Below, piece by piece: positions 8,237 through 49,142 of a DNA stretch of 64,000 nucleotides; positions within the stretch are counted from its first letter, which is position 1, and every line of letters begins with the position of its first letter. The stretch lies in the NCBI GenBank assembly GCA_964649085.1, contig CAZYPN010000014.1, positions 78 to 64,077 on the forward strand, in the 5' to 3' direction. A program made the position numbers and the translations under genes. The notes under the pieces are model-generated. The model saw only the letters and a list, made by a program, of their open reading frames with translations, was not told where the DNA came from and did no database searches. This DNA comes from an uncultured Burkholderiales bacterium (GTDB lineage Bacteria; Vulcanimicrobiota; Xenobia; Xenobiales; JADMJV01).

Positions 8237-8296
8237 CGAGGGGCGACTCTCCACCATGGACAGGGATATCCGGGGGGAAGCCTGTAGTCTGCTCGG

Positions 8297-10470: not shown

Positions 10471-10549
10471 GCCGGAGAAACCGGCGGGATGGTAGGGGCT
10501 GAAATGCCCTTCGCTGAAGGACTGGCCTTCTTATCGCGGCACAAGCAGG

Positions 10550-10873
10550 CTAGCGGCAAGGGCGCACTCGACCGCGTCCGAAGGCGCGTCCACGCCCGCA
10601 TGCCCGACCCTGACCCCAGCCCCGTCCGCGGCCGATGGCCAGGCCCTGACCCTCGACGCTGCCGGTGCCACAGCGACGGCGCAGCCGGCCTTGTTCATCG
10701 CGATACACCACCATGCCCGTTCCCGACACGCTGCCGTCACCGCGCATCACTCCTCGACCGCGCACGAGGCCCTGTCCGCCCACGGCACCCTGGCCCTGGG
10801 TTCCCTGCAGTTCGGCGCTGGCGGTTCCCAGCAGGCTGACCATCAGGGCGAAAGACATCAGAACGGATTTCAT
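10550..10873 (-). CDS. Small secreted Gly/Arg-rich protein (107 aa)
   Basis: AAGGAG lies 7 nt upstream. The signal peptide is MKSVLMSFALMVSLLGTASA. The mature part is GQG/GRG repeats (..GRGRGWGQGRACGRGRAFGRGRVRPCR) with three Cys. Confidence 0.6.
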   Translation of the reverse strand: MKSVLMSFALMVSLLGTASAELQGTQGQGAVGGQGLVRGRGVMRGDGSVSGTGMVVYRDEQGRLRRRCGTGSVEGQGLAIGRGRGWGQGRACGRGRAFGRGRVRPCR

Positions 10874-10967
10874 CGGTGCGGCTCCTTCTCGGAAGAGGTC
10901 GTCCCCTTCACGAGCTCAGCTTAGCGGGGTGGCCTCAGAGGAGACTCAGGGGTCGCTCAAAATCGGC

Positions 10968-31898: not shown

Positions 31899-32657
31899 AT
31901 GTTTCAGAGTTTGCTTGCCGGTTTCAAGGGTTTGTTCGCGCCCGGAGGTTCAACCACCAGTGCGGCTGACAACGGTTTTCAGGAGCGACGACGTCGAGTT
32001 CGCTTGCGTTGCAACTACGAGGTCAAAGCCACCGTGGGCGACAAGAAGTTCAAAGCAACGGTGGTCGATATCGGCATTCAGGGCCTGAAGATTCGCACCA
32101 GTCAGAAGCTCAAGGCCGGCGATACGGTGGTGCTGGCTCCGCCCGGTCCGATCTCGGGTTCTCCGGCTCAACCGGTCGAGGGCAAAGTGTTATGGACGAT
32201 GACCCCACGCAAGACGTACCTCACCTATGCCGGAATTTCATTTTCCTCGGGCAAGGAAGTGATGGCAAGGTCGTGGGTGCGTCTGTTTCTGGTCGAATTG
32301 GGCTTTACTCAAAAGATGATCCAGACCCAGCGTCGCTTCATCCGCGCCGATTGCTTCCTGGAGGCCCGCTTTCACTCTCCACAGTTGGGCAAGGAGGCAA
32401 TTGGTCGGGTCTACAATCTGGGGGTGGGCGGCATGTTGTTGGAGTCGCCTTACGACCTGCCGATTCAAGAACCGGTAAGCCTCGAGTTTTTGTCCTTCGA
32501 GAAACTACCGCCGCTGAAGATGCTCGGCTATCCGGTTCAGGCCAAGCGAGAAGGAACCATGAAGCTGGTCGGCATCGAGTTTCGCGATCTCAGCGCCGAG
32601 CAGCTCGACCTGCTGAGTCGCTACCTCAAGAAGCTGCTCAAGGCGAGTTGGAGCTAG
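31899..32657 (+). CDS. Tandem PilZ-domain protein (c-di-GMP receptor type)
   Basis: First repeat: ERRRRVRLRCNYEV ... VVDIGIQGLKI. Second repeat: QRRFIRADCFLEARF ... VYNLGVGGMLLES. These are RxxxR and D/NxSxxG-like PilZ motifs, present twice. Confidence 0.7.
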   Translation: MFQSLLAGFKGLFAPGGSTTSAADNGFQERRRRVRLRCNYEVKATVGDKKFKATVVDIGIQGLKIRTSQKLKAGDTVVLAPPGPISGSPAQPVEGKVLWTMTPRKTYLTYAGISFSSGKEVMARSWVRLFLVELGFTQKMIQTQRRFIRADCFLEARFHSPQLGKEAIGRVYNLGVGGMLLESPYDLPIQEPVSLEFLSFEKLPPLKMLGYPVQAKREGTMKLVGIEFRDLSAEQLDLLSRYLKKLLKASWS

Positions 32658-35620: not shown

Positions 35621-38131
35621 TTGAAATCCGAGTCTGACGACCAACCTGGGGCAGAGAAGGCGGCACAAGGCAAGTCTTCCTTTATTCCTCGTTGGCGTCA
35701 GCGCCAAATGGAGGCAGAATCGGCTTCTCAGCCACCGGACGCCTCTCCAGCCCCCGCCGAGCCGGACACTCAGGCCCCCTCTCCCGGGCCGATCAAAAAG
35801 AAGTTGCAGGCGCGCTGGAGGCAACACACCGAGGCTCCGGCCGAGACTGCGGCTCCGCCTGGCCCGCCAACGGACAGAGAATCCGGGGGCCAGACGGCGG
35901 CGCGAACTTTCCAGCCCCGCTGGCGTCGCGCGCAGTCTCCGGGCGAGGGCGGCGAGGCCGTGCATCCAAACCTCCAGGCCCAGCCGGCTTCAACCGGAGA
36001 GCGGCCTCGCGGGTTTCAGCCCCGTTGGCGACAGCGTGCCCAGGAAGTTGCGGCGATTGAAGAGCAGCAGCAGCGGCAGCAGCAGTTGGAAGTGCAGGGA
36101 AAGGCGCCCGGCCGCGAGGCCAACGTTCAGGCTGGATTTCAACCCCGCTGGAGGCGCATGGCGCCCGAACAACCCCCTCCGCCCCAGATTGAAGCCCGTC
36201 CCCTGGAGGCCGCTGCCGAGAAGCCGTCCGGATTTCGAGCTCGTTGGCGCAGGACGGCAGCGTCTTCTCTCTCGCTGCCGGTAGAGCCGGTGCTCGAGCC
36301 GGAGCTTGCTGTGGAGGTCGTCGAGCCCCCGCCGATCGAAGTTCCCCCCGTGGAGCCTCAGCGCGTGGCGCTGGCTGCTGCAACTTCGCCGGTCCAGGAA
36401 GATGAGCCGGCCGAGCCGCGCCAGGATGCGGAGTGGGACGAAGGGGCAACTTCTCCGCCGCTGGCAGAGGCTGCACCGCGCTATTTTCTCGCCCTGGCCA
36501 GTCAACCAGAGTCGCCGCCCGATCAGCAGCCTCCGCCCGTAGAGGTAACTCCGCTTGAACCCGAGGCTCCATCGCAACTGGAAGGCATTGCCGAGGAAGC
36601 TGGTGAGGTGCTGTTGCTGGGGGCTCAGGCCTCCGACGGTGTCGAATTTCTGGATATCAGCCCCGACGAAAATCCCGAAGAGTTGCTGGCGGCCCTCGAG
36701 CATAAGGTGCGCAGCCCTGTCGTGTCTCTTCCCGGACCCGATCAGGCTGGGCCCGCCTCGCCGCCTGCCGAAGTTCCCGTCGCTCAACCACCCGAGAGCA
36801 GGCCCTTCAAGAAGGGTCTGCCCCCGCTACCGCCTTTGCCTCCGGTGCAGGCACCTCGACCGCTTCCCGAGCACCTGAAAGCGGCTCTGGTGGATCGAAC
36901 GGTTCCCGTAGACCGGCTGCCCGATGCCGCGCCGGTCGCTCGACCTGCCGCCCCGCCGACTCGCGCGCCCGCCGCCGGACCCGCACCTGTCCGCGCCCCG
37001 GCTGCTCCCCGACTTCAAGGCGGGCGGACTACGCCCGCTCTGGTGGAGCGAGTTCGCAAGTTCAAGATTCCCACCCGCGAAGCTCGCATCAGCGGCGAGG
37101 AGGTGGCCAACTTCACCCGTCAACTGTCCGTGATGATCGGTTCGGGCCTACCGCTGTTGCAGGCGCTGCATTTTTTTGCCGAGGCGGTTCCCGGAGGCCT
37201 GGGTAAGGTGGTCGGGGGGGTGGCCGATAAAGTGTCTTCGGGCTACCGACTGTCTGTAGCCATGTCGGCTCATCCCACGCTGTTTTCCGAGGTCTACGTG
37301 GGACTGATCGAGCTTGGCGAGACCAGCAGCCATATCGAAGATGCTCTGGACCGATTGGCCGATTTGCTCGAGAAGCAGGTCAGGCTTTCCAAGCGGTTGA
37401 GTGCGGCTCTGATCTACCCGGCCTTCCTGGTCGGGGTGTCGCTGGCCGCTGTGGCGCTGTTTTTGATCTATGTGTTGCCCACGATGATTCCGCTTTTCGC
37501 AGGCTTTGGCATGGAGCTCCCCTGGCCCACCCGACTCTTGTTGGCCAGTCGCCAGGCGGTCCTTCCGGGCTTTCTGTTGGTACTGCTCTCGGCTGCCCTG
37601 TATCACTATTGGAAGCCACGCTGGGTGATCGCCAGGCGCCAGCGCGCCAACTGGGCCAGGCGCATCGACCGATTCTTCATGGGGTTGCCTCTGGTCGGCA
37701 AATTCTTGATCCAGCTGGCTACGGCGCGGGTACTCTTCGCGATGGCCACCATGCTCGACTCAGGACTGCCCCTGTTGAGCGCCCTGCAGCGCTGTGAACT
37801 GGTGGCAGCCAACCTGGAGATCGCGGGTCGACTGGAAAGTGCGGCGGCCGCCATCCGCGAGGGGGTCACCGTGGTCGAGGCCTTCCACAGCCACGAGGTC
37901 ATGCCCCCTGCCTGCTTGCACCTGCTGGCCGCCGGTGAGGAAAGTGCCAAGATGGTGGAGATGATCCAGTATTCGGCGCGATTCTACGAAGAAGAGGTCG
38001 AACAGGCCATCAGCCGGTTTATGTCGTTGGTAGAACCCGTCATCATGGTGGTCATGGGATTGGTCGTGGGGTTTATCGTGCTCAGCGCGGTTCTGCCCAC
38101 CGTTCAGATGATCCAGCAACTGGGTGTCTGA
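35621..38131 (+). CDS. GspF/PilC-family platform protein with an N-terminal Pro-rich extension of about 470 aa
   Basis: The C-terminal 360 aa or so read ..EEVANFTRQLSVMIGSGLPLLQALHFF..LGETSSHIEDAL.., ..LFAMATMLDSGLPLLSAL..AGEESAKM.., with three TM segments. The extension lies in the same uninterrupted frame starting at the TTG at 35621. Confidence 0.75.
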   Translation: MKSESDDQPGAEKAAQGKSSFIPRWRQRQMEAESASQPPDASPAPAEPDTQAPSPGPIKKKLQARWRQHTEAPAETAAPPGPPTDRESGGQTAARTFQPRWRRAQSPGEGGEAVHPNLQAQPASTGERPRGFQPRWRQRAQEVAAIEEQQQRQQQLEVQGKAPGREANVQAGFQPRWRRMAPEQPPPPQIEARPLEAAAEKPSGFRARWRRTAASSLSLPVEPVLEPELAVEVVEPPPIEVPPVEPQRVALAAATSPVQEDEPAEPRQDAEWDEGATSPPLAEAAPRYFLALASQPESPPDQQPPPVEVTPLEPEAPSQLEGIAEEAGEVLLLGAQASDGVEFLDISPDENPEELLAALEHKVRSPVVSLPGPDQAGPASPPAEVPVAQPPESRPFKKGLPPLPPLPPVQAPRPLPEHLKAALVDRTVPVDRLPDAAPVARPAAPPTRAPAAGPAPVRAPAAPRLQGGRTTPALVERVRKFKIPTREARISGEEVANFTRQLSVMIGSGLPLLQALHFFAEAVPGGLGKVVGGVADKVSSGYRLSVAMSAHPTLFSEVYVGLIELGETSSHIEDALDRLADLLEKQVRLSKRLSAALIYPAFLVGVSLAAVALFLIYVLPTMIPLFAGFGMELPWPTRLLLASRQAVLPGFLLVLLSAALYHYWKPRWVIARRQRANWARRIDRFFMGLPLVGKFLIQLATARVLFAMATMLDSGLPLLSALQRCELVAANLEIAGRLESAAAAIREGVTVVEAFHSHEVMPPACLHLLAAGEESAKMVEMIQYSARFYEEEVEQAISRFMSLVEPVIMVVMGLVVGFIVLSAVLPTVQMIQQLGV
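35681..36256 (+). repeat. Six dispersed protein-level repeats of F-Q-P-R-W-R-R inside the GspF extension
   Basis: SSFIPRWRQR, KLQARWRQH, RTFQPRWRRA, RGFQPRWRQR, AGFQPRWRRM, SGFRARWRRT. Codons differ between copies (cgt/cgc/agg, cct/ccc), so the conservation is at amino-acid level. Confidence 0.8.
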
Positions 38132-38150
38132 CCGAGGGCACATTTCCGCA

Positions 38151-38447
38151 CTATTGCGGATGGTGATCGTGGGAGTCCTCGCGGCTGTCGTCGACCCCGT
38201 CGGAGTCGCTTCCAACCCAGTTGCGCACCTGCTTGCGAACCCCCCGGAAGGCACTGCTGCGCAGCCGACGCTTTTGCTCGGGTTCGAGTTGCTGGAACAC
38301 GTAGTAGGCTGCCAGCGCACAGCCGGCGCCCAGCACGGCTACGGTGAAGAGCTTCCCTGGCGTGTAGGGCTGGCTCTCGATACGGGCCGGGCGAACGGGC
38401 CGGGGTTCGGGGGTTTTGGGTCCTGTCGACTCTTCCGTCTCACTCAT
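38151..38447 (-). CDS. Small single-TM protein with an acidic/His-rich tail, hypothetical
   Basis: The 98 aa include the TM helix LFTVAVLGAGCALAAYYVF. The ATG overlaps the prp stop by 8 nt. Confidence 0.5.
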   Translation of the reverse strand: MSETEESTGPKTPEPRPVRPARIESQPYTPGKLFTVAVLGAGCALAAYYVFQQLEPEQKRRLRSSAFRGVRKQVRNWVGSDSDGVDDSREDSHDHHPQ

Positions 38448-38787
38448 GAGCTAGGTTGTTCCCCGCATTGACCTGAATGAATCCTGGATAGTAACAGGCC
38501 AGTTCCTCAAGTGCTAAGGCCACGCTGCGCAGCAATGCCTGGGCCGAGGGAAACTGGGGATGGTCCACTTGCTCGTGGGCCAGGGAAACAAAAAAGTGGC
38601 CGTCCGAGGCGGCCACCTGGCATGGGATGTTCAGAACCTTCGTAAAGCCAATACCCAGGGCACCCGTCAAGGCTGACACCGCGGCGCAGACCAGATCGGG
38701 GCCTTCATCGTGAAAACCAGCGTGCCCGCGGCATTCGAGCCTCCAAAGCCTGGAGGCCGAGTCTTCTTCCCAGTGAGCCTCAACCAT
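38440..38787 (-). CDS. prp: Ribosomal-processing cysteine protease Prp
   Basis: ..CRGHAGFHDEGPDLVCAAVSALT.. (His/Cys dyad context), located directly downstream of rplU. Confidence 0.75.
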   Translation of the reverse strand: MVEAHWEEDSASRLWRLECRGHAGFHDEGPDLVCAAVSALTGALGIGFTKVLNIPCQVAASDGHFFVSLAHEQVDHPQFPSAQALLRSVALALEELACYYPGFIQVNAGNNLAHE

Positions 38788-38820
38788 GTTCTTGGACCGA
38801 CCGCGCCCCTGGGGCAGCGA

Positions 38821-39135
38821 TCAGGCCTTCTTGATGCTCTCGATTCGCAGCGAGGTGTAGGGCTGGCGATGACCGCGCTTCACGCGCACGTTCTTCTTCG
38901 GCTTGTAGCGGAAGGCCGTGACTTTGCGCAGGCGATGCTGCTCGACGATCTTGGCCTGAACCTTGGCGCCTTGAACGTAAGGAGCGCCGACCTGAACGGA
39001 GCCGTCGCCAGCGAGCAGCAGAACGCGGTCCAGGACCACCGAACTACCCTTGTCGCCGTCGAGCTTTTCCACTCTCAGAGTCTGGCCCTCAGCGACCTTG
39101 TATTGCTTGCCACCTGTTTCAACTACCGCGTACAT
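38821..39135 (-). CDS. rplU: 50S ribosomal protein L21
   Basis: MYAVVETGGKQYKVAEGQTLRVEKL..VLLLAGDG..VGAPYV.GAKV.A.IVEQ.R..KV..FRYKPKKN..RK.GHRQPYT.L.I. Confidence 0.95.
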   Translation of the reverse strand: MYAVVETGGKQYKVAEGQTLRVEKLDGDKGSSVVLDRVLLLAGDGSVQVGAPYVQGAKVQAKIVEQHRLRKVTAFRYKPKKNVRVKRGHRQPYTSLRIESIKKA

Positions 39136-39211
39136 TCGAACCTCACAAGAACCCTAAAAAATGTCTCGCGACCATACCACTGTCGCTGCTTACTGTCAAG
39201 CCGAAGCGCGA

Positions 39212-39688
39212 TCAGCCCTGGGGAGCTGCCGTGGCGGTTTGTTGATTGCGCACTCGGTCGATAGCCCGCTGGCCGCCCCACTTTTCTACAATCAGGTCAT
39301 CATACTCGTCGGCGATCAGAACGACCGAACTCACCGAAGACTTCAGCTCGTTGGGGTCGCAGGTAGATCCCAGGATGCTGTGCTCGAAGAAAATGTCGCC
39401 TTCCTCATCGATGCCGAAAGCACCAAAGGTCATTCGGTCGTTCTCACGCAGCAGAAAGTGCATCAGATCGGGCGTCAGTTCGGCTCCGGTAACGACATAG
39501 GCGCGGGTGGAGATCACACTCTCATCTTCGCCAAACGGGTAGATGGCCGTTTGGGCAAAGGCCGAGCCCACCAGCACGCCAAACTCTGGAACCTCGGGGC
39601 GCTGGCCCGCGAACTCGCCGTAAAACTCGCGCATCAGGGGCAGAATCTTGTCATAGCACTCTTTTTGAGCTGGGGTATCAAATCTCAT
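39212..39688 (-). CDS. YbjN / T3SS-chaperone-like family protein
   Basis: ..ISTRAYVVTGAELTPDLMHFLLRENDRMTFGAFGIDEEGDIFFEHSILGSTCDPNELKSSVSSVVLIADEYDDLIVEKWGG fits the YbjN-domain pattern (LL..N....fG.f.ld..g.i.f.h.l.g..ld..EL...v..v...AD.yDd). Confidence 0.6.
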   Translation of the reverse strand: MRFDTPAQKECYDKILPLMREFYGEFAGQRPEVPEFGVLVGSAFAQTAIYPFGEDESVISTRAYVVTGAELTPDLMHFLLRENDRMTFGAFGIDEEGDIFFEHSILGSTCDPNELKSSVSSVVLIADEYDDLIVEKWGGQRAIDRVRNQQTATAAPQG

Positions 39689-39768
39689 CGTGGGCCCTCC
39701 GGGAACCGTTGTAGCAAAGGGTGTTCCTTGCCCGGCGGTGGGTTCCTCTCAGGGGTACAGGGGAAAAT

Positions 39769-42700
39769 TCAAGCTTCGGCCTCGGAGTGAAGCCCCGCAG
39801 GCGCCTGTTCGTCCCATTCTTTGCGCAACTTGGGTTCCAGGCTTCGAATCCAGGCCTGCAGTTGCGACCTGGCCCGGACCACGAACTCATTGTCGGCTTC
39901 TTCCTGGCGATGGGCCTGCCAGCGAACCCAGCCCTCGAAGAGTTCCTGCCAACAGCTTCGTTCCTGCCATTCCGGATTGGCCGACTGTCTGCAGAAAGTA
40001 AGCCACAGTCGTTGACAGTCGAGCAGGGGAGCGATCAGATACTCTTTGCTCTGCCACATCTCGTTTTCGTACATCGACAGCGCCGCTCGCAAGGGTTCAC
40101 GCACCAGGTTCCATTGCTCCAGCGCGAGCTGGGCCCGGGCCAGTTCCAGTTGAGCCGCAGCCAGGTGCAGACCCAGATGGTTTCTCTGGTTGCCTGGCAA
40201 ACTGTTCAGCTCTTCAAGAGAGACGGTGGCAACATCGAGAGCAGCCTGGTGGCGGTTGGCCTGACGCTGAACCCGGGCCAGCACCTGCCGGTGTATGGCA
40301 CACCACATGCGGGCCTGATCGTAACCCTCCTGGGCTCGACGTTGCTCGATTTCGACGGCGGCCTGGGCCTTTTCGGCAGCCAGATCGTGGTGACCCAGGG
40401 CCGACTGGATCAGGGCCTCGGTGCTGAGGCATACCGAGCGTTCGGTTTCCACATCGGCTTCGCTTTCGGTGGCGCGAATATGCTCCAGCGCCTCTTCGGC
40501 CTCGGTCAGGCATTCCAGTCCCGCCTCGGGTTGACCCAGATGCAGATGGATCCAGGCCTGCAACTCGCGCACATCGGCGAGTTCCAGTTGAGGTGCGCCC
40601 TCGGAGGGGTCGAAGTCGAGCAAGTCCTGGCGACATGCTTCGGCGATTTCCATGGCCTCTTGAAGCCGCCCTCGGCGGGCTCGCACCCGAGCCTGATAAA
40701 CTCTGGCGCTCAGTTGTTCAAGCGACAGGTCTTCCGCTCCCAGGCCGATGGCCTGCTGATAGGCGTCAATGCATTGATCGAGCGCCTCCTCAGCCTGGCG
40801 CAGCAGACCTTGATGGCTGAGAATCTTGGCTCGAAAGAACAGCACCAGGGCCTGTTCCGACAGGTCCATTCCCTGCATCATCTCGGGGGTCAACAGGGTG
40901 TTCAGAGAGCCAGAGGCTTCGCCGATTCGGTTCATCAGTGCCAGGGCGTGGCTGCGAAGGAACTCCAGTGAGGCCACGTCGGCCGGATTCGATTCGCCGG
41001 CAGGCAAGGCGTTGATCACCGTGATGGCTTTTCTCAGACGTTCTTCGGCCTCGTTCCATTTCTCCAGGTCGAACAAAGCCATGCTCTGCTCCAGATAGAG
41101 AAACACCAGTTCCTGGTCCCCTGGCCATTGGAATTGATGATACAGGCCTTCAGCCTCGCCCAGCAGCCGCATGCTTTCCCATCGCATTCCCATATGCTCG
41201 AGGGGGCCGGCGTTCTCCGGCAGGGTTTCGCGAACACCGCGCAGGGTTTCCGACTGTTCCATGAGCAGTTCGAAGAGGTACTGGGCCCACTCTTCACCCT
41301 CCTCGCGGGTCAGCTTGCGAGCCAGGTCGAGAGCTTCCTGGCCGTGGCGAAGACTATCGTCTGCATTGCCCAGCGCGCGCGCCGAGCGTGCCTGACCCCG
41401 CAAGGCGTGAATGGTCTTGGCCTGGTCGGCCTGACCTTCACGCAGGCTTCTCTGGTGAGCTTCCTGATACAGGGGATAGGCCCGTTGCACATAGCCCATA
41501 TAGAGATAGGGATCGGCCAGGCATAGCAGACAGTGAGTCAGCAGTCCTTCAAGGTTGTCGTTGCGTTCGTTTTTGACCAGAGCCCGCAGCATATCCAGCG
41601 CCTGCTCGCCGAAGTGAGCTCCATCGGAGTAGCGCCCCTGATTGGTGAGAGTGTGGCAACAGTCGGCGTAGATCTCGGCGAGTTGAGCCGCGAAACGTCG
41701 AGATCTTTGGGCCTTCTTGCGCTCGAGCATGTGGGCAGAGACCAGAAAGAGCTGAAGTCCGATTTCCTCGTAGCCCTGTTCGCGCGCCAACCGTCCCAGG
41801 GCCCAGGTTTGCTCGACCGTTTCCTGATCGTGCATCAGCCGGGAGAGATCGCCCATACGACCGCTCTCCGCCAGGTGATACTTGAGGAAACAGTGGGCGT
41901 AGAAGTCGGCGTCTTGCGGATTGGGATTGGCTGGACGGGAGCTGTCGAGCGCCAGCGCAACCACCCGGCGATGGCTCTCGGAGACTCGATCGCGCCAGGA
42001 CGGATGTTGCAGCAAGAAGTCACGCAGTTCAGGGGAGCGCAGCGAATAGTGTTCACCGGTGAAGAGTGCGTCGTATTGGGAGCCTTCGCCATCGCTACTG
42101 AGAAAGTCGCGCAACTCGAAGAGGGCGAAGGCCACTTTTTCAGGAGCATTTGACCAGGCCTTGAAGAGTTCCAGGCTGACCGGAACCTGAGCCACCGCCA
42201 GCAAGATCAAAATTTCCAGATGGACGGTGCGAAAGACCTCGGGGCCGAGCCGTCGACCCATGGCTTCAAACAAGGTTTCGAAGAGGTTTTCGGGCTCGGG
42301 AAGGGGGACCTTCCACCTCAGCAACAGGGCGTAGTAGTAGCCCAGGCGCCAGTTGCCCTGGCTCTTTACCAGGATCTGCTCCACCTGAGCAAAGTGCTCT
42401 TCGTCCAGGCGTTTTCTAAGGTAGCCATCAAGTTCTTCCAGGTTACGAGGATGCTCGGGCTGAAGCACCAGCTGGTCGACCGGGTGTCGGGCACGCCCGG
42501 CCGTAACGAGATAGATCCCTTCCGCGAAGTCCCTCCAGGCGGGGAGTTCCGACAACTCGACAGCTTCCTCGAAGCCGTCGAAAAGGATGACGAAACTGCT
42601 GTCGATCTCTTGAGTCAGCCACTGAAATGCGGCCAGCAAGGCCCTGGGTGGTGACTGTTCGTAAAAGGCCTGCGAGACCGCCAGGCGCAAACTCTCGCCA

Positions 42701-42966
42701 TCGATGTCCAGCAGGTATTCGGTGGCGTCCACCAGGCGCCAGATCAGGGAAGTCAGGCTCTCGTCGGGGCTCTTCTCCAGATAGAGAGGAACGGCACCGC
42801 GCTCCTGAGCACCGACAGCCAGGCCACGCAGCAGCCAGCTCTTGCCGGAGCCCGAAGGACCCGAGAGATGTAAGTGACCATGCGTGCGTCCGAGAACCCA
42901 GCCCCAGACCTCTTCGAGGGTTTCCTCGCGAGGCCAATACTCCGAAAGAAAATCGTCTAATAACAC
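39769..42966 (-). CDS. STAND/AAA_16-type P-loop NTPase with a long TPR-like helical repeat region (1065 aa); no output domain in cis
   Basis: GTG start. ..PREETLEEVWGWVLGRTHGHLHLSGPSGSGKSWLL has Walker A at residues 36-43, and FVILFDGFEE is a Walker B-like block at 125-134. About 800 aa of helical repeats follow (e.g. ..YMGYVQRAYPLYQEAHQRSL.., ..LEKWNEAEERLRKAITVINA..). Confidence 0.75.
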   Translation of the reverse strand: MLLDDFLSEYWPREETLEEVWGWVLGRTHGHLHLSGPSGSGKSWLLRGLAVGAQERGAVPLYLEKSPDESLTSLIWRLVDATEYLLDIDGESLRLAVSQAFYEQSPPRALLAAFQWLTQEIDSSFVILFDGFEEAVELSELPAWRDFAEGIYLVTAGRARHPVDQLVLQPEHPRNLEELDGYLRKRLDEEHFAQVEQILVKSQGNWRLGYYYALLLRWKVPLPEPENLFETLFEAMGRRLGPEVFRTVHLEILILLAVAQVPVSLELFKAWSNAPEKVAFALFELRDFLSSDGEGSQYDALFTGEHYSLRSPELRDFLLQHPSWRDRVSESHRRVVALALDSSRPANPNPQDADFYAHCFLKYHLAESGRMGDLSRLMHDQETVEQTWALGRLAREQGYEEIGLQLFLVSAHMLERKKAQRSRRFAAQLAEIYADCCHTLTNQGRYSDGAHFGEQALDMLRALVKNERNDNLEGLLTHCLLCLADPYLYMGYVQRAYPLYQEAHQRSLREGQADQAKTIHALRGQARSARALGNADDSLRHGQEALDLARKLTREEGEEWAQYLFELLMEQSETLRGVRETLPENAGPLEHMGMRWESMRLLGEAEGLYHQFQWPGDQELVFLYLEQSMALFDLEKWNEAEERLRKAITVINALPAGESNPADVASLEFLRSHALALMNRIGEASGSLNTLLTPEMMQGMDLSEQALVLFFRAKILSHQGLLRQAEEALDQCIDAYQQAIGLGAEDLSLEQLSARVYQARVRARRGRLQEAMEIAEACRQDLLDFDPSEGAPQLELADVRELQAWIHLHLGQPEAGLECLTEAEEALEHIRATESEADVETERSVCLSTEALIQSALGHHDLAAEKAQAAVEIEQRRAQEGYDQARMWCAIHRQVLARVQRQANRHQAALDVATVSLEELNSLPGNQRNHLGLHLAAAQLELARAQLALEQWNLVREPLRAALSMYENEMWQSKEYLIAPLLDCQRLWLTFCRQSANPEWQERSCWQELFEGWVRWQAHRQEEADNEFVVRARSQLQAWIRSLEPKLRKEWDEQAPAGLHSEAEA

Positions 42967-42993
42967 TCGGTCGGGTTCACTTCCGAGCCCAGG

Positions 42994-43338
42994 TCAACTC
43001 CCCTGCTCTTCTTCGTGAGTGCGGGGAGCTACCAGCCAGTCTGAGAGTTCGCTCCAAAAATGGTCCTCGAACCAGGGAAAGAAGCTGCTGGAGGTCTCTT
43101 CCGGGGTGATTTCCAGGATGATTCGCCAGTGTCCCGGCCGCCGTCCCAGCGGCGACTGTTCCAGCACGAAATATCCCTGCACGGCTTTGAGCCACATAAA
43201 TGCCTGGGCTTCGTCGCGTTGCAGGTTCTGGCAACGAGCGACGTCCAGGCGCAACCCTTCAGTGTGTATGGTGTAGGCGGCTGAATTGGTGATGAATTGA
43301 TGGACTTCCAGGTCACAGGCGCGAATGGAATACTTCAT
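42994..43338 (-). CDS. Hypothetical small protein (114 aa), operon partner of the STAND NTPase
   Basis: It is the longest ORF in the region. Its ATG overlaps the upstream stop (ATGA), third codon positions are C/G-biased, and it ends 27 nt before the NTPase start. No motif recognised. Confidence 0.6.
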   Translation of the reverse strand: MKYSIRACDLEVHQFITNSAAYTIHTEGLRLDVARCQNLQRDEAQAFMWLKAVQGYFVLEQSPLGRRPGHWRIILEITPEETSSSFFPWFEDHFWSELSDWLVAPRTHEEEQGS

Positions 43339-43721
43339 CGCCTGGTGACAGAGTTTGACATTACCTCGAAACTCTGGAGGTCCACTTCGATGGTCTGTTT
43401 CAAGGCGCTACCCTGAGTGACCAGTCGGGCACGGCGCTTGTTGCGATCGATGATGAGTTGTTGCAAGATACCCTCTTTCTCAAAGTCGTGGGAGTTGCGC
43501 AGAACGTAAGCCCGGACTTCCGTCTGGGCCAGTTCCACCTGGGGATCGAGCAGCCAACCACTGCGCATCACCAACTTGGGCTGTAGTAAAAATTTGATGA
43601 AACGGGGGCTTCCCACCTCGAAGAAGGTTCCCATAAGACCTGAGTTGCGCAGGTCCTCCTCCAACTCGGGATGGATTCGCCCTGAAATTGTCTCTGAGCT
43701 CGGTTCGCTAACCATGATCAT
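43335..43721 (-). CDS. Hypothetical small protein (128 aa), first gene of the STAND operon
   Basis: GGAG lies 6 nt upstream of the ATG, and a 133-bp AT-richer spacer precedes it. Residues about 28-60 (GTFFEVGSPRFIKFLLQPKLVMRSGWLL) faintly resemble the PATAN/DUF4388 pattern. This is unverified. Confidence 0.6.
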   Translation of the reverse strand: MIMVSEPSSETISGRIHPELEEDLRNSGLMGTFFEVGSPRFIKFLLQPKLVMRSGWLLDPQVELAQTEVRAYVLRNSHDFEKEGILQQLIIDRNKRRARLVTQGSALKQTIEVDLQSFEVMSNSVTRR

Positions 43722-43854
43722 TTCGTCTCCGCCCTTCTTAAAGAGCTAGCGTTGTTGCAGCGGGGTTACAGCGGAATGTGTGAGTGTCAAGAACTGACAT
43801 ACGCTTACCCCCTCCTACACTTATTGCACCATCCGACCAGGACCAAACGATCCA

Positions 43855-45543
43855 TCAAACGATCCAGTCGAATTGGTCCACCGCCTTGTCCAGTGTTTCG
43901 ATGGTCGCCTGATACAGGGACTGGGCCTCTTCGGGACTGTCGCCCACGCACGTCACGCCCAGTTTACCGAACTGCGACAGGGCGCCGATCATATGGAACA
44001 CCACGCCCGTGTTGGAGGAAGAGTTGTAGTGTAAGCCGGTGTAGGTGGTGATGTCGATCAGGTCCTCAGGAAGCAGGCCGCGATATTTTTCCGACTCCAG
44101 ATTGTCCGAAGCGAAATAGTACTTCGGATTGCCCGTCCCCGACTGGAACAGCCCGGTTTCGGGGTCGTAGCGGCCACCGGTGAGGAATTGCAAAGTGCGG
44201 AACGGGTGGGTGGTGCCGCCCTTGCGCAGGTTGATTTCCACGGCAAAGAGGTCCCACTGGTCTTCTTTGGGAACGCAAAGGAAGTCGATGGAAAGGCGTC
44301 CGATGACGCCCACTTTGGCCAGTTCCTCGCCGATGCGCTGGCCGGCTTCGTGGAGAGGCTTCTGGTAGGCGGGGGCGGCAGGGAAACTGCACCCGATAAA
44401 CACCTGCCCGTCCGGGCCGCCCAGCACCTGGTCATGAGTCGAAATGATTTGGGGTTCTCCCAGCGGCGTGATACGCATCTGCACACTGGGTGAGGCCTTG
44501 AGGTCTCCCTCGATGAATTCTTCGACGATGCCTTCCATTTGCTGGAACTTGCGCAGGTAGCCATCCCAGTTCATGCCTGGGGCCTGGAAGCGAGCCTGAG
44601 TTCGCACCATATCCCGCAGGGTTTTCAGGCAGGCTTTCTTATTGGACCAGTTGCTGACCCCGCCCAGCGGCAAGATAGCGTTGCCATCTCCCGAGAAGCC
44701 GTCATTGATTTTGACCACGACTCTCTTCATCTCGGGACGAAGTTTGTGCAGTTCGAAGATGCCCTCGACAATATCGTCCTCGTTCTTCAGGTCCTCAAAT
44801 CCCGTGGCCAAAGGAATGCCAGCCTCGCGAAAGAGGCGACGGCAGCCGCTCTTGGAGCCATAGCGAAGATGCTTGGGGTCGGGTCCGAGCAGAGGAATGC
44901 CAAGGGCCACCGACAGCGACTTTTCCAGTTGGGTGACATTGAATACCGTGAGGTGACTGTTTTCGGCATTGCCGATGGCTTTGCGAATTCGTCGCAGCAG
45001 ACTGGGACGCTCGAGGATTTTCTGGGTCAGCGATTTGGGTGAAGTGTCATAGACGGCAAACATCTCCAGGCGAGAACGGGCGTGCGAAAATGGAATACCG
45101 GGGAGCAGCTGGAGGTAGTAATCGATGATGAAGGGATGAATGGGTTCAGAAGTTACGAAAATCACCCGGGTCTTGGGCAAACTCAGCAAGATCAACATGA
45201 AGAGCAGCCGCTCTTCGTAGTGTTGTGCGCCTTTTAGCTTCTGAAGTTCCTCTACGTCGAGAGTCATGGAGGGAACCACCACTACGGTCTGAGGAATGTG
45301 ACCGTCGCCACTGAGGCTGCGCCAAAGGTCGGGAATTTTCCGATACAGCTCCTGAAAGATTCGGTCTTCTTCCTTGGAGCCCGCGGCCGGAAGATTGAGG
45401 TCTGCCCAGGCCTGATAAGCCGGCAACACGGGTTGGCGTGCGACCGCCGCTTGCACCTCTCCGGTGGGACCATCCAGGTCCGTCACCTTGAGCCGATTTC
45501 TTCTGGCCATCACCGACCTCCAGCGATTGAGTTGGCTCCCCAT
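43855..45543 (-). CDS. ATP-grasp superfamily protein, PGM1-like peptide/carboxylate-amine ligase type
   Basis: A pre-ATP-grasp-like N-terminal half (..VVVVPSMTLDVEELQKLKGAQHYEERLLFMLILL..VIFVTSEPI..) is followed by an ATP-grasp core (..VVVKINDGFSGDGNAI.., ..VEEFIEG.., ..LFAVEINLRKGGTTHP..). The start may be the internal ATG at 45510 (MARRNRL). Confidence 0.6.
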   Translation of the reverse strand: MGSQLNRWRSVMARRNRLKVTDLDGPTGEVQAAVARQPVLPAYQAWADLNLPAAGSKEEDRIFQELYRKIPDLWRSLSGDGHIPQTVVVVPSMTLDVEELQKLKGAQHYEERLLFMLILLSLPKTRVIFVTSEPIHPFIIDYYLQLLPGIPFSHARSRLEMFAVYDTSPKSLTQKILERPSLLRRIRKAIGNAENSHLTVFNVTQLEKSLSVALGIPLLGPDPKHLRYGSKSGCRRLFREAGIPLATGFEDLKNEDDIVEGIFELHKLRPEMKRVVVKINDGFSGDGNAILPLGGVSNWSNKKACLKTLRDMVRTQARFQAPGMNWDGYLRKFQQMEGIVEEFIEGDLKASPSVQMRITPLGEPQIISTHDQVLGGPDGQVFIGCSFPAAPAYQKPLHEAGQRIGEELAKVGVIGRLSIDFLCVPKEDQWDLFAVEINLRKGGTTHPFRTLQFLTGGRYDPETGLFQSGTGNPKYYFASDNLESEKYRGLLPEDLIDITTYTGLHYNSSSNTGVVFHMIGALSQFGKLGVTCVGDSPEEAQSLYQATIETLDKAVDQFDWIV

Positions 45544-45587
45544 TCCCCATCGGGGAAGTGGCTCCCTTTACGGCGAAGGCCAGCCGG

Positions 45588-46526
45588 ATGAGAGTTCATG
45601 TAACCCGGAAAATTCCCCAACCGGCCCTGCAGACATTGTTTCAAACCGGCTGGGATGTTTTTGTCGGACCCGAGGAAATCCCCAGTCGCTCCCGGTTCCT
45701 GTGGGCTGCAACCGGGGCTCACGGCCTGCTGAGCCTGTTAACCGAGCGTATCGACGCTGAAGTGATGGACCGTTGCCCCCAGCTCAGGGTGATCTCCAAT
45801 TGCGCGGTGGGTGTCGACAATATCGACGTTGCCGAGGCTTCGGCCCGCGGGATCGTGGTGTGCAACACTCCCGGTGTACTCACCGAAGCCTGTGCCGACT
45901 TCACCTGGGCCCTGATTTTGGGCTTGCGACGCCGCCTGCTGGAGGCCGACCAGTGGGTCCGCACCGGCCGCTTTGAAGGTTGGGGGCCCTTGCTTTTGTT
46001 GGGAGGCGACCTGCACGACTGTCGGTTGGGGCTTATAGGGATGGGAGCCATTGCCCAGGCCGTGGCCCGTCGAGCCGCGGCCTTTGGTTGTCAGGTTCAC
46101 TACTGGTCGCGCACGGCCCGAGAGGGTCCCTGGCAGCGCCACCTTCAACTGGATACCCTGTTGCAGGAATGCGATGTGGTCAGCCTGCACGTTCCGCTTT
46201 CAGCCGAAACCCATCACCTGATCAACCGCCATCGTTTGTTCCAGATGCAGGCCGATGCCCTGCTGATCAATACCAGTCGGGGCCCGGTCGTCGACGAGGC
46301 CGCGCTGGCCGAGGTTCTGGCCGAGGGCCATCTGGGGGGAGCGGCTTTGGACGTGTACGAGCGTGAGCCAGAGGTCCATCCTGGCTTGTTGAGCAGCCCC
46401 CGGGTGCTGCTCGCCCCCCATCTTGCCAGCGCTACCCGGGGCACTCGCCTGCGCATGGCCGAACTGGCGGTAGAGAATCTGTGTCGGGTGTTGCGGGGTG
46501 AAGCGCCCTTGCATCAGGTGGTGTGA
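45588..46526 (+). CDS. D-isomer-specific 2-hydroxyacid dehydrogenase (glyoxylate/hydroxypyruvate reductase-like)
   Basis: MRVHVTRKIP.., GVDNIDV, GLIGMGAIAQAVARRA (NAD fold), LINTSRGPVVDE, LDVYEREP, APHLASAT. Confidence 0.85.
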   Translation: MRVHVTRKIPQPALQTLFQTGWDVFVGPEEIPSRSRFLWAATGAHGLLSLLTERIDAEVMDRCPQLRVISNCAVGVDNIDVAEASARGIVVCNTPGVLTEACADFTWALILGLRRRLLEADQWVRTGRFEGWGPLLLLGGDLHDCRLGLIGMGAIAQAVARRAAAFGCQVHYWSRTAREGPWQRHLQLDTLLQECDVVSLHVPLSAETHHLINRHRLFQMQADALLINTSRGPVVDEAALAEVLAEGHLGGAALDVYEREPEVHPGLLSSPRVLLAPHLASATRGTRLRMAELAVENLCRVLRGEAPLHQVV

Positions 46527-46648
46527 AATTGTAACAGGCTGTTCATAAGTGCAGAGTGAACTTCTCTGCGTATTGACCGCAAGCGTCTATGCTGAAGTTG
46601 TTCCGGACGGCATCGTCCGGACAGGTCGCTCCCTCTGAACCTTTCGAT

Positions 46649-46673
46649 AAGCCGGAACCCCGGCTTTTTTTTT
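46649..46673 (+). terminator. Rho-independent terminator-like hairpin with a T9 tract, upstream of the SLH-porin gene
   Basis: AAGCCGG-AACC-CCGGCTT followed by TTTTTTT. It is preceded by two more hairpins, GCAGAG/CTCTGC (46551-46569) and TCCGGACG-GCAT-CGTCCGGA (46602-46621). Confidence 0.65.
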
Positions 46674-46718
46674 GCCCTTTCCAGGCTTGTCGGTCCGGAC
46701 CTAGAAAAGGCCCCCGCC

Positions 46719-49142
46719 ATGAAACGTCAGATCGTAGCTCTGGCCCTGGGGGGCTGGCTGTGCCAAGCCGCCCAGGCGGCCCCTTTGCCCTGGGAAAGCC
46801 CGCGCGCTCAAGATGCCTTGAAAGTATTGGCAGCCAGTGGCGTGTTGCAGGAAAACTGGCTATCCTATCGGGTGGCCAGCCGTTGGGAAATTGCCGTATT
46901 GATGCAGCGACTGTTGCAGCGACTGGAGTCGCAGCCGGAGCTGCTGGCCAGCAAGCTCGAGCGTGAGGCCGTGCAAACTCTGGTCGGGGAAGTCCAGGCT
47001 GAACTTCAGGCTCTCGCGCCCCGAGTCGACGGGCTCGAGCAACAGCTGACCGCGCTCGAGCAGCGGGTCGAGTTCCAGGAGCGTTTTCGCTTTCGCGGTC
47101 GTTTTCTGATGGCCGCCCTCTACCAGGGGGTCAACAACACGGGCAACGATCGCAGCGGCCTGGGAATCGGCTCACTCGACTATCAAGGATTGGCAGGTTC
47201 AACCCTGCTGACCAACGGGGTGCCCCACTCCCCCGAGGGCATCGTTCCGCAGCTCGACCTGGCCCGCGGACGCCCGCTGATTCAAGGCACCAGTTTCACT
47301 TCCACCCTCTACCTGGATGTCGAGCACCAGCCCGACGAGGACTGGCTCTACCAATTACGATTCTATGCTTATACCTCGCAAGGAAATTCGTTGCTCGACG
47401 CCACCTGGGGCACTCCTCAGCCCTATCTGGCCAATCCTTTTACCGGCGCTGGCGGTGGCACCCCCCAGGGTTCGAACCGTGCGCCCTTTAGCAGTATGGG
47501 GTTCGACCGTTTTCGCCTGACCCACGTTCCAACGGGATTTGGTTTGACCCTGGGCAGTTTTCATCCCCGCTTGATTTCCAGCCAGGTATTTACCGGTCAG
47601 GTCAACCCTCGGGTGGGAGATCCTCGCCTGCTCGAGAGCTTCGGAGTCCACGCTTCGGCCGAACACGGGCCTTTTGGTTGGGAGGCCTTTGGGACCTACT
47701 TGCCCGACGGGAATCCCGCCCAGTTGGGGCTTCAGCCCCTGCAGCATCTGGCCTGGGGTGGTGCGCTCAGTTATCAGAACAAGGGCTGGCAAGCCACCTT
47801 GAGCCTGCTCCAGGCTTCGGCCAGTTCTCGTGACGGCAACCCTCGGGCCGTGGGCCTGTCTAACCTGGTGAATGGAAGCACGGGTCAGGTAAATGTCAAC
47901 TGGGTGAACCCCAACGGTTTTTTTGCCGGACAGTTGCCTCCGGCGGCCTCGGCCGGCCGTGGCTCAACCAGCGATCGTCGTCCTGTCCCAGGTCGAGCCG
48001 GGCTCGATGGGGGAGGTCGAGAGGCCAGCTTCGGCCCCCAGCAGCAGCTGGGCCTGGGATTGAATGTGAACTATCGAGATCCTGCTGGCTGGGCCGTGTT
48101 GGGCGAATGGGCCCACACCCGATATCGGCCCAGCCAGAACTCCAGCTTTCAACGCGAGGGCAACCTTTGGAGCCTGGGCACTCAGGTGGAACTGGGAGAG
48201 TCGCGGGAGTTTCAACTCCAGCTGGACTATCGCTCGACCGACGCCACCTACGACCCCATGATTCTCGTGTTTCCTTCTCCCAGCTCGTCCCTGGTGCCCT
48301 TTCGTGTCTACCACCGGTTCCCCGATCACGACCAGTTCTGGCATCTTTACTCGCTCCACGACACCGATCGGTTTCCCCATAATCGCAGGGGGTTCTGGCC
48401 TGCCTTCCGCTGGAATTATGGCCCGGACAGCCACCTGGTGTTGCGGGGACGTTGGTTGGAACAGGTGTCAACCTCGTTGCAAGATGTCCGCTTTCAGCCC
48501 GGCCAGCTCGGGGCCAACGTGCCCAACGAGCAGGTGCTGGGGCATTCGCCAGGATTTTTCGACGTGGTGTTTCGAGAGTTTTCACCCCTGTCTTTCAACG
48601 CCCAGCTGCAGCCCCTTGAGAATCCCCGTGGCCGCGTGACGGCACTGGGGTTAGACCTGCATCATCACTTTGAGGACACTCCCTGGACCCTGGACTTTCG
48701 ATTGGAGCGTCATCACTTTCGCCGTCCCACCCGCTTGCCCGCCAGTTTGGGGGGGAGCCAGAACCGGGTGGACCTGGCCCACAGTCTCGCCCATGTAGGA
48801 CTGGAGTACAAACCCAATTCCAGTTGGAGTTACCGATTGAACTACGACGTGGCAGAAATGCGGGGACACTACGACCCGCTCGGAGTGTACAATCCCTTCG
48901 CCATCAGTAATGACCGGGTCGATTTCCTGAATCGCGACCTGCTCCAGCACGCGCCCGGCCTGGAAGCCACCTGGCATCTGGATAGTCAGACCCGTTGGGA
49001 TATGGGCCTGACTTACTATATCAATATCGATCGCGTGCCTCGCTCTGTATTTGCCGGGCTGCCGGGCGGGCCTCAGGCGACCGCTCATCCGTTTTCGTTC
49101 AATGCCGTGCGCTTGGAAACGCGACTCGAAGTCGATTTCTGA
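46719..49142 (+). CDS. Outer-membrane porin-like protein with an N-terminal SLH domain and coiled coil
   Basis: The signal peptide is MKRQIVALALGGWLCQAAQA. The SLH-like block is ..PRAQDALKVLAASGVLQE..YRVASRWEIAVLMQRLL. A coiled coil (..LQALAPRVDGLEQQLTALEQRV..) is followed by about 650 aa rich in alternating aromatic/Gly beta-strand patterns, ending in ..RLETRLEVDF. Confidence 0.7.
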   Translation: MKRQIVALALGGWLCQAAQAAPLPWESPRAQDALKVLAASGVLQENWLSYRVASRWEIAVLMQRLLQRLESQPELLASKLEREAVQTLVGEVQAELQALAPRVDGLEQQLTALEQRVEFQERFRFRGRFLMAALYQGVNNTGNDRSGLGIGSLDYQGLAGSTLLTNGVPHSPEGIVPQLDLARGRPLIQGTSFTSTLYLDVEHQPDEDWLYQLRFYAYTSQGNSLLDATWGTPQPYLANPFTGAGGGTPQGSNRAPFSSMGFDRFRLTHVPTGFGLTLGSFHPRLISSQVFTGQVNPRVGDPRLLESFGVHASAEHGPFGWEAFGTYLPDGNPAQLGLQPLQHLAWGGALSYQNKGWQATLSLLQASASSRDGNPRAVGLSNLVNGSTGQVNVNWVNPNGFFAGQLPPAASAGRGSTSDRRPVPGRAGLDGGGREASFGPQQQLGLGLNVNYRDPAGWAVLGEWAHTRYRPSQNSSFQREGNLWSLGTQVELGESREFQLQLDYRSTDATYDPMILVFPSPSSSLVPFRVYHRFPDHDQFWHLYSLHDTDRFPHNRRGFWPAFRWNYGPDSHLVLRGRWLEQVSTSLQDVRFQPGQLGANVPNEQVLGHSPGFFDVVFREFSPLSFNAQLQPLENPRGRVTALGLDLHHHFEDTPWTLDFRLERHHFRRPTRLPASLGGSQNRVDLAHSLAHVGLEYKPNSSWSYRLNYDVAEMRGHYDPLGVYNPFAISNDRVDFLNRDLLQHAPGLEATWHLDSQTRWDMGLTYYINIDRVPRSVFAGLPGGPQATAHPFSFNAVRLETRLEVDF

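Follow-up and report, generated by a model that had tools for sequence, protein, structure and literature searches.

A co-linear gene block around a NACHT-like STAND NTPase as a candidate cellular module of Vulcanimicrobiota

In a window of 64,000 nucleotides, which is the whole stretch of DNA analysed, we identified three adjacent minus-strand genes (A, B and C), the last of them encoding a NACHT-like STAND NTPase with a TPR array, that belong to a conserved five-gene block. With moderate confidence, we interpret this cluster as a vertically inherited, lineage-specific cellular module of the Vulcanimicrobiota (Eremiobacterota), and not as mobile defence, in which A-B-C would form the core, C acting as switch or scaffold and A and B as its partners. 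The block is restricted to one phylum and occupies a core-genome position. Nowadays, bacterial STAND/NLR-like proteins are read nearly automatically as anti-phage receptors, and C is a candidate counter-example, since a NACHT-signature NTPase and a TPR array are here a fixed part of the core genome in a phylum about which little is known, evolve at a housekeeping rate and are accompanied by two undescribed small families. If A and B indeed bind the TPR array, the cluster would represent an NLR-type switch performing an ordinary cellular task with its partners in trans, and would give functional access to two orphan families for the first time; if they do not, it would be one among many conserved function-orphan operons of uncultured lineages.

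Layout and conservation of the block

The features considered here are the following:

43855-45543, minus strand: G, 562 aa, PGM1/BesA-type ATP-grasp ligase, conserved upstream neighbour
43722-43854, minus strand: G-A spacer, 133 bp
43335-43721, minus strand: A, 128 aa, undescribed small family
42994-43338, minus strand: B, 114 aa, only found between A and C
39769-42966, minus strand: C, 1065 aa, NACHT-like STAND P-loop NTPase
42838-42861, minus strand: Walker A of C (GPSGSGKS), residues 36-43
42565-42594, minus strand: Walker B of C, NACHT-type (VILFDGFEEA), residues 125-134
39212-39688, minus strand: D, 158 aa, YbjN/T3SS-chaperone-like, conserved downstream neighbour

The initial annotation, made from the sequence alone, had described three packed minus-strand genes of 128, 114 and 1065 aa, and the ORF coordinates agree with it throughout: the start of B overlaps the stop of A in an ATGA (43338-43335), and 27 nt (42967-42993) separate B from C, whose start codon is GTG at the same site where its orthologues start with MLLDDF. 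All three are genuine genes, and purifying selection acts on them (dN/dS 0.05-0.09; 0.054 for A and 0.090 for B). The lower GC noticed for the small genes is likewise real (0.54-0.56 in the A/B region against about 0.60 nearby; GC3 0.67 against 0.70-0.71 in C and G), but the dip is small and no mark of foreign origin, the codon composition being native. Moreover, the YbjN-like gene reported 80 nt downstream of C, with rplU next after it, is indeed present as D, and passes the Pfam thresholds for TY-Chap1 (43.3 bits, cut-off 27) and YbjN (35 bits, cut-off 22).

A neighbourhood comparison, as the initial annotation had proposed, showed that the small ORFs are conserved and keep their synteny with the NTPase at all complete orthologous loci, and likewise in a second lineage. 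The A-B-C unit is thus real, although the conserved block is larger than first described and comprises five genes, with G possibly the first: G-A-B-C-D is co-linear in 12/12 complete loci, all from Vulcanimicrobiota/Eremiobacterota. The second, diverged lineage (loci L008 and L009) retains the five genes with both flanks different, and between the lineages identity is 35-40% for A, 32-34% for B and only 46% for C, against 71-76% for G and D. Spacing is tight across loci: A and B overlap by up to 4 nt or stand up to 46 nt apart, the B-C gap measures 3 to 27 nt, and C and D overlap by up to 11 nt or are separated by up to 80 nt. G is always found 36-150 nt upstream of A and in the same orientation (12/12 complete loci, including L008 and L009). 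What the initial annotation held to speak against a coupled unit, namely small genes out of synteny or of housekeeping families and an NTPase with unrelated neighbours, was not found, save for one C homologue (L007, 43% identity), which has none of the four other block genes. One phylum and effectively two lineages account for all loci, and a genome scan with strict peptide patterns recovered only 5 species, so that conservation of the block holds for the loci compared and not necessarily for the whole clade.

In the G-A spacer, the 133-bp length and the minus-strand TTGACA (43790-43785), followed 16 nt later by TAACCC (43768-43763), exist as annotated; however, the pair fails a sigma-70 scan, and TTGACA is missing from the orthologous spacers. 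The spacer also holds the element TGYAAC-N5-YGCAAY (43754-43770), its sole exact copy in the window, which is found exact and at the same position in four other loci (L003, L004, L012 and L013) and with one mismatch in L001, and which may be a promoter-like or operator-like element of the main clade. A GGAG lies 5 nt upstream of the ATG of A, and the spacer has no Rfam match.

The NTPase, the small proteins and the flanking genes

STAND P-loop NTPases are recognised by a Walker A of the form GxxxxGK[ST] and a Walker B of the form hhhhD, and C carries both (GPSGSGKS at residues 36-43 and VILFD at 126-130). The Walker A residues G36, G39, G41 and K42 and the Walker B residues D130 and G131 are invariant among 13 homologues of C. 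Furthermore, the Walker B signature of the NACHT clade is D[GAS]hDE (bioRxiv 10.1101/2022.07.19.500537), which C of the window matches with DGFEE; DGFDE or DGFEE occurs in 8/9 aligned main-clade homologues, the exception being P0050 (DGFDN). Of the three distant homologues, P0052 and P0053 have lost the signature (DGVRG, DGPRG) and P0054 retains part of it (DGLDA), and ATP hydrolysis may not be universal, since the acidic pair is missing in the L008/L009 lineage. The repeat part is identified by TPR_12 at residues 479-551 (37.6 bits, cut-off 30.1), with weaker matches to other TPR models, and among PDB entries the C profile additionally picks up the TPRs of kinesin light chain; a putative helical/winged-helix-like region and the TPR region together cover residues about 400-1065. 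The Walker A at 36-43, the DGFEE block and the TPR region of the initial annotation are therefore borne out by motif conservation and TPR_12.

No curated STAND-family model of Pfam exceeds its gathering score on C of the window; AAA_16, AAA_22, ATPase_2, NPHP3_N, NACHT and nSTAND1/3/5 all stay below threshold there, yet they match 5-6 of 6 C-family members (best E 1.5e-7); NPHP3_N, among the best of them, matches 5/6 (best E 2.7e-6), and APAF1_C matches weakly at 331-386 (E 0.006-0.012). A profile search of residues 1-400 against PDB returned nothing significant. As had been proposed, C lacks both an effector domain (Pfam, NCBIfam and PADLOC) and an HTH (Pfam and NCBIfam), and its P-loop module begins the chain, with the Walker A at residue 36. 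Orthologues of C are 63-70% identical, and those of the second lineage 46-47%.

The small proteins, to which no motif could initially be assigned, indeed belong to no described family: neither A nor B has a Pfam, NCBIfam or PADLOC family, a PDB match, or a toxin or enzymatic signature. Homologues of A number 37 (63-88% identity), all in Eremiobacterota/Vulcanimicrobiota MAGs or unnamed metagenomes, and an A profile run against 1.84 billion representatives matched 19 clusters only, all of standalone proteins of 111-183 aa. The AF2 model of A (pLDDT 78) predicts short N-terminal helices and a five-strand beta-meander; searches of PDB and BFVD with this model gave no fold match of significance. 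For B the AF2 model is unusable (pLDDT 44) and a word-based search gave 2 matches; its positional orthologues are 28-56% identical over 12 loci, and among all fetched loci it was seen only beside C and never apart from it. The A family, in contrast, is also represented at seven loci, in five other genomic contexts, where no STAND gene is present and where its neighbours are unrelated genes, among them one for Peptidase_C11, one for an NDH-2-like oxidoreductase and one for a 291-aa protein without a Pfam match; A is therefore not a dedicated STAND partner. Two assignments were rejected. The faint PATAN/DUF4388 resemblance suggested for residues 28-60 of A is unsupported, as 0/24 A-family members match DUF4388 at E<=1. 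Membership of A or B in the TY-chaperone (YbjN/CesT) superfamily fails too, with an hhalign probability of 0.1% for both A-D and B-D, and Foldseek on the A model returned no chaperone, despite the five-strand meander.

Among the flanking genes, G matches ATP-grasp_IQCH (87.8 bits) and PGM1_C (49.7 bits) in Pfam and BesA in PDB (8yi6, E=4e-41); its 144.7 bits against the NCBIfam BesA cut-off of 750 make it a family member, neither equivalog nor orthologue. For D, identity reaches 88-91% within the main clade and 74-76% in L008/L009, above that of ribosomal protein L21, and in L008 the D start overlaps the stop of C. Both families are broader and independently distributed: G homologues occur without A-D in Gemmatirosa (52% identity) and Nonomuraea (41%), and D homologues without G, A, B and C at 23 other metagenome loci. 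In three other lineages a D homologue directly follows a Clp/Hsp100-like double AAA+ ATPase, which hints that D-type proteins are generally paired with large ATPases.

Defensive and cellular readings

In our judgement it is very unlikely that the cluster is a split anti-phage or conflict STAND system, in which the TPR region of C would sense an invader protein and A and/or B would be adaptors or effectors in trans. Such a system would explain why C combines the NTPase and TPR architecture of bNACHT/Avs receptors with no effector in cis and is tightly coupled with two orphan proteins. It would also fit locus L021, where a distant member of the A family extends into the beginning of a gene for a clostripain-type Peptidase_C11, as peptidases are among the effector classes of bacterial NACHT proteins (bioRxiv 10.1101/2022.07.19.500537). 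However, under the criterion by which a defence neighbourhood extends within 5 kb (PMC13581612), PADLOC (E<=0.001, within about 5 kb) found no match for A, B, D, G or 7 further neighbours, and for C gave non-significant matches only (mad8, E=0.0018; TPR, E=0.027). The neighbours (rplU, prp, 2-hydroxyacid dehydrogenase, peptidase S46 and T2SSF) are housekeeping genes, and the position beside rplU is fixed in every main-clade locus. Whereas the C-terminal region diversifies fast in the defence NACHT clade (bioRxiv 10.1101/2022.07.19.500537), the TPR region of C is 63-69% identical across main-clade species, which is close to the conservation of L21 (72-77%) and equals that of the remainder of C. 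In addition, C has no viral relative, A and the NTPase domain of C (residues 1-400) have no plasmid relative, the composition is native, and A and B are under strongly purifying selection with no toxin-like domain. The core position, the PADLOC result, the slow TPR region and the lack of viral and plasmid relatives together disfavour the conflict module of the initial annotation. Indeed, non-immune STAND clades are interspersed among the defence clades (PMC13581612).

Two further explanations concern the coherence of the block itself. One would centre on ligase G, with an amino acid ligated to A, B or a metabolite and C/D serving as regulator, scaffold or chaperone; G is in the PGM1/BesA carboxylate-amine ligase family, stands first in the co-linear block of both lineages, whose flanks differ, and in L005 and L010 lies merely 36-39 nt from A. 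Nevertheless, we regard such a pathway as unlikely, given that G homologues occur without A-D and that G evolves independently (71-74% identity between lineages, against 32-46% for A, B and C), that the conserved A and B (114-128 aa) are unlike leader-core precursor peptides, that the block has no transporter, protease or tailoring enzyme, and that in the main clade a seemingly promoter-like or operator-like conserved element stands between G and A. The other explanation, which we likewise consider improbable, is synteny without common function, C being an ordinary effector-less AAA_16/TPR protein whose neighbours were kept by slow rearrangement in a narrow clade. The origin of all loci from one phylum and effectively two lineages, the occurrence of G, D and A each in other contexts, and the solitary C of L007 would be consistent with it. 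On the other hand, the overlaps and 3-46-nt gaps of A-B-C persist at 32-46% identity while the genes flanking the block change, B is never without C in the fetched loci, and A, B and C diverge in parallel.

In the preferred reading, that of a vertically inherited cellular module, A-B-C would be the core operon and C a nucleotide-dependent NACHT-like STAND switch, its long TPR array, which evolves slowly, serving as a scaffold for protein binding. A and B, expressed from the transcript of C, would bind C as ligands, regulators or adaptors and co-diverge with it, and ATP-bound C together with A and B may come together in a complex responsible for the control or assembly of a conserved cellular process, with D (a YbjN-type chaperone) and G (an ATP-grasp ligase) as probable accessory components. 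We infer the binding of A and B to C, the nucleotide switching, the involvement of D and G, and the controlled process. As no fold or motif can be recognised in A or B, the scaffold-partner role is just the most economical reading, and the C homologue without partners in L007, the A-family members in other contexts and the lost acidic pair of the L008/L009 lineage count against it. More tentatively, and with considerable doubt, A-B-C might be a three-component, vertically inherited NLR-like signalosome, with A and B as new-fold input or output subunits in trans, that is, a non-immune or domesticated-immune split NLR of a candidate phylum, perhaps with a chaperone and a partner-modifying ligase.

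Comparison with known systems

G shares the fold family of PGM1/BesA ligases, with PGM1_C and ATP-grasp_IQCH domains, but it scores far under the BesA equivalog cut-off and has no pheganomycin or Bes pathway genes nearby; similarly, D passes the TY-Chap1 and YbjN thresholds like YbjN/T3SS class-I chaperones, although no T3SS is present.

C and the bNACHT/Avs proteins have in common a NACHT-like P-loop whose Walker B is of the D[GAS]hDE type, and a long sensor-type TPR array at the C-terminal end; a helical/winged-helix-like region may be a further shared element. Unlike them, C has no fused N- or C-terminal effector and is coupled with two orphan small proteins, and its TPR array is slow, in a core-genome locus of one phylum, with no defence island and no PADLOC match. 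In an arrangement reportedly described by Kaur et al. in 2020, the N-terminal adaptor domain of a STAND NTPase is paired with the same domain on an effector. The idea of output via separately encoded proteins of the same operon is common to that arrangement and to A-B-C, but C opens with its P-loop module, and neither an adaptor nor an effector domain can be recognised in A or B.

Finally, non-immune STAND/NACHT proteins (NPHP3 and TEP1; MalT/AfsR-type regulators) resemble C in combining an NTPase switch with a repeat scaffold and, on the reading preferred here, in serving a conserved cellular role. MalT/AfsR-type regulators differ by a DNA-binding HTH (LuxR or SARP) domain that C lacks, and NPHP3 and TEP1 by extra domains absent from C, to which they have no detectable orthology; compared with all of these, A and B as putative partners are unique to this cluster.

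The five-gene block and its occurrence

Three minus-strand genes encode the proteins A, B and C, C being the NTPase with a TPR region; they lie between an ATP-grasp ligase gene (G), upstream of A, and the YbjN/T3SS-chaperone-like gene D. The coordinates, the ATGA overlap and the 27-nt gap claimed in the initial annotation were matched by the ORF list and the minus-strand sequence, and its YbjN/T3SS-chaperone-like gene was recovered as D.

43335-43721 (-): A, 128 aa; ORF list and minus-strand sequence
43338-43335 (-): ATGA, overlap of the A stop with the B ATG
42994-43338 (-): B, 114 aa, 27 nt before C; ORF list and minus-strand sequence
39769-42966 (-): C, 1065 aa, GTG start
39212-39688 (-): D, above the Pfam TY-Chap1 and YbjN thresholds, 80 nt 3' of C and followed by rplU and prp

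The start of C was placed at the GTG, where MLLDDF forms the N-terminus of aligned orthologues. In every complete main-clade locus (the close relatives), the order G, A, B, C, D, rplU, prp was found on one strand, and L008 and L009, a second, diverged lineage in which C is 46-47% identical, keep G-A-B-C-D with changed genes on both sides and rplU not adjacent. Coupling was tight: A and B overlap by up to 4 nt or stand up to 46 nt apart, B and C are 3-27 nt apart, and C and D overlap by up to 11 nt or are separated by up to 80 nt. The small ORFs and the YbjN-like gene were thus kept beside the NTPase in every complete main-clade locus and in L008/L009; the A-B-C unit initially described is real, although the co-linear block is wider, G-A-B-C-D.

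Per cent identity with the proteins of the window (main clade first, then L008/L009)
G: 75-85%; 71-74%
A: 63-69%; 35-40%
B: 42-56%; 32-34%
C: 63-70%; 46-47%
D: 88-91%; 74-76%
L21: 72-77%; not adjacent

By these identities A, B and C diverge together, and G and D are nearly constant. With HMMs for A, B, D and the N-terminus of C, every ORF in the 49 loci retrieved was searched; B was found adjoining C only, and C within the cluster only, except for one homologue. In L007 this homologue (8001-11213, 1070 aa, 43% identity) occurs without A, B, G or D and adjoins TonB-dependent receptors and a GAF histidine kinase/response regulator pair. Furthermore, a genome scan recovered five species, all Vulcanimicrobiota, with the full cluster at every locus spanning the region; the scan used strict peptide patterns and may have missed the cluster elsewhere.

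The other members of the block also occur apart from it. G is a PGM1/BesA-type ATP-grasp protein with homologues in Gemmatirosa (52% identity) and Nonomuraea (41% identity), neither with A-D nearby. Homologues of D (46-65% identity) were found in 23 other metagenome loci (GC 35-68%), none of which had G, A, B or C; in three of the 23 (L026, L030 and L032) a Clp/Hsp100-like double AAA+ ATPase stands immediately before the D homologue, which suggests that D homologues may generally be paired with large ATPases. A literature search for YbjN together with STAND/TPR gave nothing relevant. For A, a profile search of 1.84 billion representatives returned only 19 clusters, all of standalone proteins of 111-183 aa, and the distant members stand in five unrelated contexts:

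standing alone
L016: after a 291-aa protein without a Pfam match
L021, 8001-9664: 130-aa member overlapping the start of a Peptidase_C11 (clostripain-like) gene
L022: before an NDH-2-like oxidoreductase
before two unknown ORFs

Since A, G and D are found elsewhere and B only beside C, the exclusive pairing is that of B with C, and A is a small protein with wider use. G and D are conserved neighbours that may plausibly be tied to the core in function.

The NTPase and the small proteins

The motifs attributed to C were located at the expected residues, with the Walker A GPSGSGKS at 36-43 and VILFDGFEE at 125-134, and the nucleotide-binding motifs of the window protein are intact. TPR_12 passed the Pfam threshold at residues 479-551, several further TPR models matching weakly, and no effector domain or HTH was detected with Pfam, NCBIfam or PADLOC, in agreement with the initial annotation. 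The STAND-class Pfam models tried (AAA_16, AAA_22, ATPase_2, NPHP3_N, NACHT and nSTAND1/3/5) were all sub-threshold for the window protein, yet match five to six of six family members (best E 1.5e-7). A D[GAS]hDE signature sets NACHT apart from other STAND modules (bioRxiv 10.1101/2022.07.19.500537), and the window Walker B, DGFEE, fits it. DGFDE or DGFEE is present in eight of nine aligned main-clade homologues, the exception being P0050 with DGFDN; in the L008/L009 lineage the two acidic residues have been lost, and in L007 the loss is partial. A profile of residues 1-400 against PDB sequences returned generic P-loop matches only (E>=0.037). On the sub-threshold STAND matches and the D[GAS]hDE-type Walker B, C is called a divergent, putatively NACHT-like STAND NTPase, that is, a predicted new and divergent member of a known NTPase class.

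A has 37 database homologues (63-88% identity), the named ones all from Candidatus Eremiobacteraeota or Vulcanimicrobiota MAGs. B had only two word-based matches; same-position ORFs in related loci are clearly homologous to it (28-56% identity). In the least saturated locus pair (L001/L003), dN/dS was 0.054 for A, 0.090 for B, 0.004 for D and 0.009 for L21; the low values for A and B therefore mark both as coding genes under purifying selection. D is also better conserved than ribosomal L21 in main-clade identity (88-91% vs 72-77%).

As initially reported, neither small protein could be given a motif, Pfam, NCBIfam and PADLOC all returning no match. The faint PATAN/DUF4388 resemblance once proposed for A is rejected: Pfam scans of 24 A-family members were empty, DUF4388/PATAN included. 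The AF2 model of A, of moderate confidence (pLDDT 78, pTM 0.73), consists of short N-terminal helices and a five-strand beta-meander; it found no fold match in PDB or BFVD at E<0.001 (best TM 0.2-0.37), and the A profile gave only chance matches to PDB sequences (E>=0.12). For B, AF2 with three near-identical sequences gave an unusable model (pLDDT 44). No profile-profile similarity among A, B and D was obtained with hhalign, so neither A nor B is detectable as a YbjN-like paralogue. As judged from these searches, A and B represent two undescribed families.

Base composition, spacers and adjoining genes

The lower GC described for A and B is real, yet small (0.54-0.56 vs ~0.60). GC3 is 0.67 in this pair and 0.70-0.71 in C and G; a foreign origin was rejected because this GC3 fits the genome.

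The G-A spacer is 133 bp in the window and 36-150 nt in orthologous loci. TTGACA and, 16 nt on, TAACCC are both present as described, but the pair fails a sigma-70 scan, in which the -10 does not pass. The -35 is not conserved, TTGACA being absent from the orthologous spacers. TAACCC overlaps the first half of a conserved element, TGYAAC-N5-YGCAAY, about 32 nt upstream of the A start codon, which possibly serves as an operator or as an atypical promoter element. The window holds a single exact copy, and six matches at <=1 mismatch vs 1.5 expected.

43754-43770 (-), window: TGYAAC-N5-YGCAAY
L003, 7951-7967: copy
L004, 2466-2482: copy
L012, 7200-7216: copy
L013, 7192-7208: copy

Rfam gave no match over 37500-46800. 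The D-rplU spacer carries a sigma-70-like promoter (39171-39199, -; TTGACA, 17 nt, TATGGT, with TG), from which rplU is probably transcribed on its own, outside the cluster's transcript.

Further observations concern the adjoining genes:

38151-39135 (-): rplU (L21) and prp (L27-processing protease), adjacent, with no rpmA (L27) after them
35621-38131 (+): T2SSF/PilC-like, 836 aa, convergent with rplU-prp
31899-32657 (+): 252-aa protein with two PilZ stretches, a candidate c-di-GMP receptor

The search for an L27 signature was negative in the window and in six related loci; in place of rpmA, a 98-aa ORF with a single TM segment overlaps the stop of prp. The T2SSF/PilC-like protein has a proline-rich N-terminal extension of ~450 aa with repeated (P/A)RWR(Q/R) motifs. 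Downstream of the PilZ gene comes a run of glyoxalase, peptidase S46 and MazG-like genes.

Cellular module or conflict system

The least supported part of the initial annotation was its conflict system, in which effectors would act in trans. Recent STAND surveys ask for an immune effector fused to the protein and for defence genes no more than 5 kb away (PMC13581612); C has no fused effector, and PADLOC on the cluster and its neighbours detected no defence gene within 5 kb. The neighbours are of housekeeping type (rplU, prp, 2-hydroxyacid dehydrogenase, peptidase S46, MazG-like and T2SSF), a non-defence context. No relatives of C were found on viral contigs, nor plasmid relatives of A, D or the NTPase domain of C. 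The TPR region, the would-be sensor, is 63-69% identical over the main clade, a level close to that of the entire protein. Together with the full cluster in five species, these neighbours, the conserved TPR region and the lack of viral and plasmid relatives lead us to favour a vertically inherited cellular module. One point still speaks for the conflict reading, the overlap of a distant A homologue with the Peptidase_C11 gene start, and we regard that reading as improbable.

We give about an even chance to C being a switch or scaffold with A and B as partners in a conserved cellular process. C would act as a nucleotide switch of the NLR type, A and B being bound by its conserved TPR array, and the resulting nucleotide-dependent complex would regulate or scaffold a conserved process of the phylum; the physical interactions, the switching and the process controlled are what we infer. 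D would probably serve as a chaperone that binds clients, and G may be a modifying ligase. A modification pathway centred on this ligase is unlikely, and similarly doubtful is synteny without shared function in a block where A, B and C diverge together.

In brief, the cluster is a genuine and clean case of a conserved operon in an uncultured lineage. Rapid diversification of the C-terminal region marks the bNACHT01 defence clade (bioRxiv 10.1101/2022.07.19.500537), whereas the TPR region of C is conserved. The architecture, a NACHT-like protein without an effector, at a fixed position in the core genome and coupled to two orphan small proteins in a five-gene block, matches no named system.
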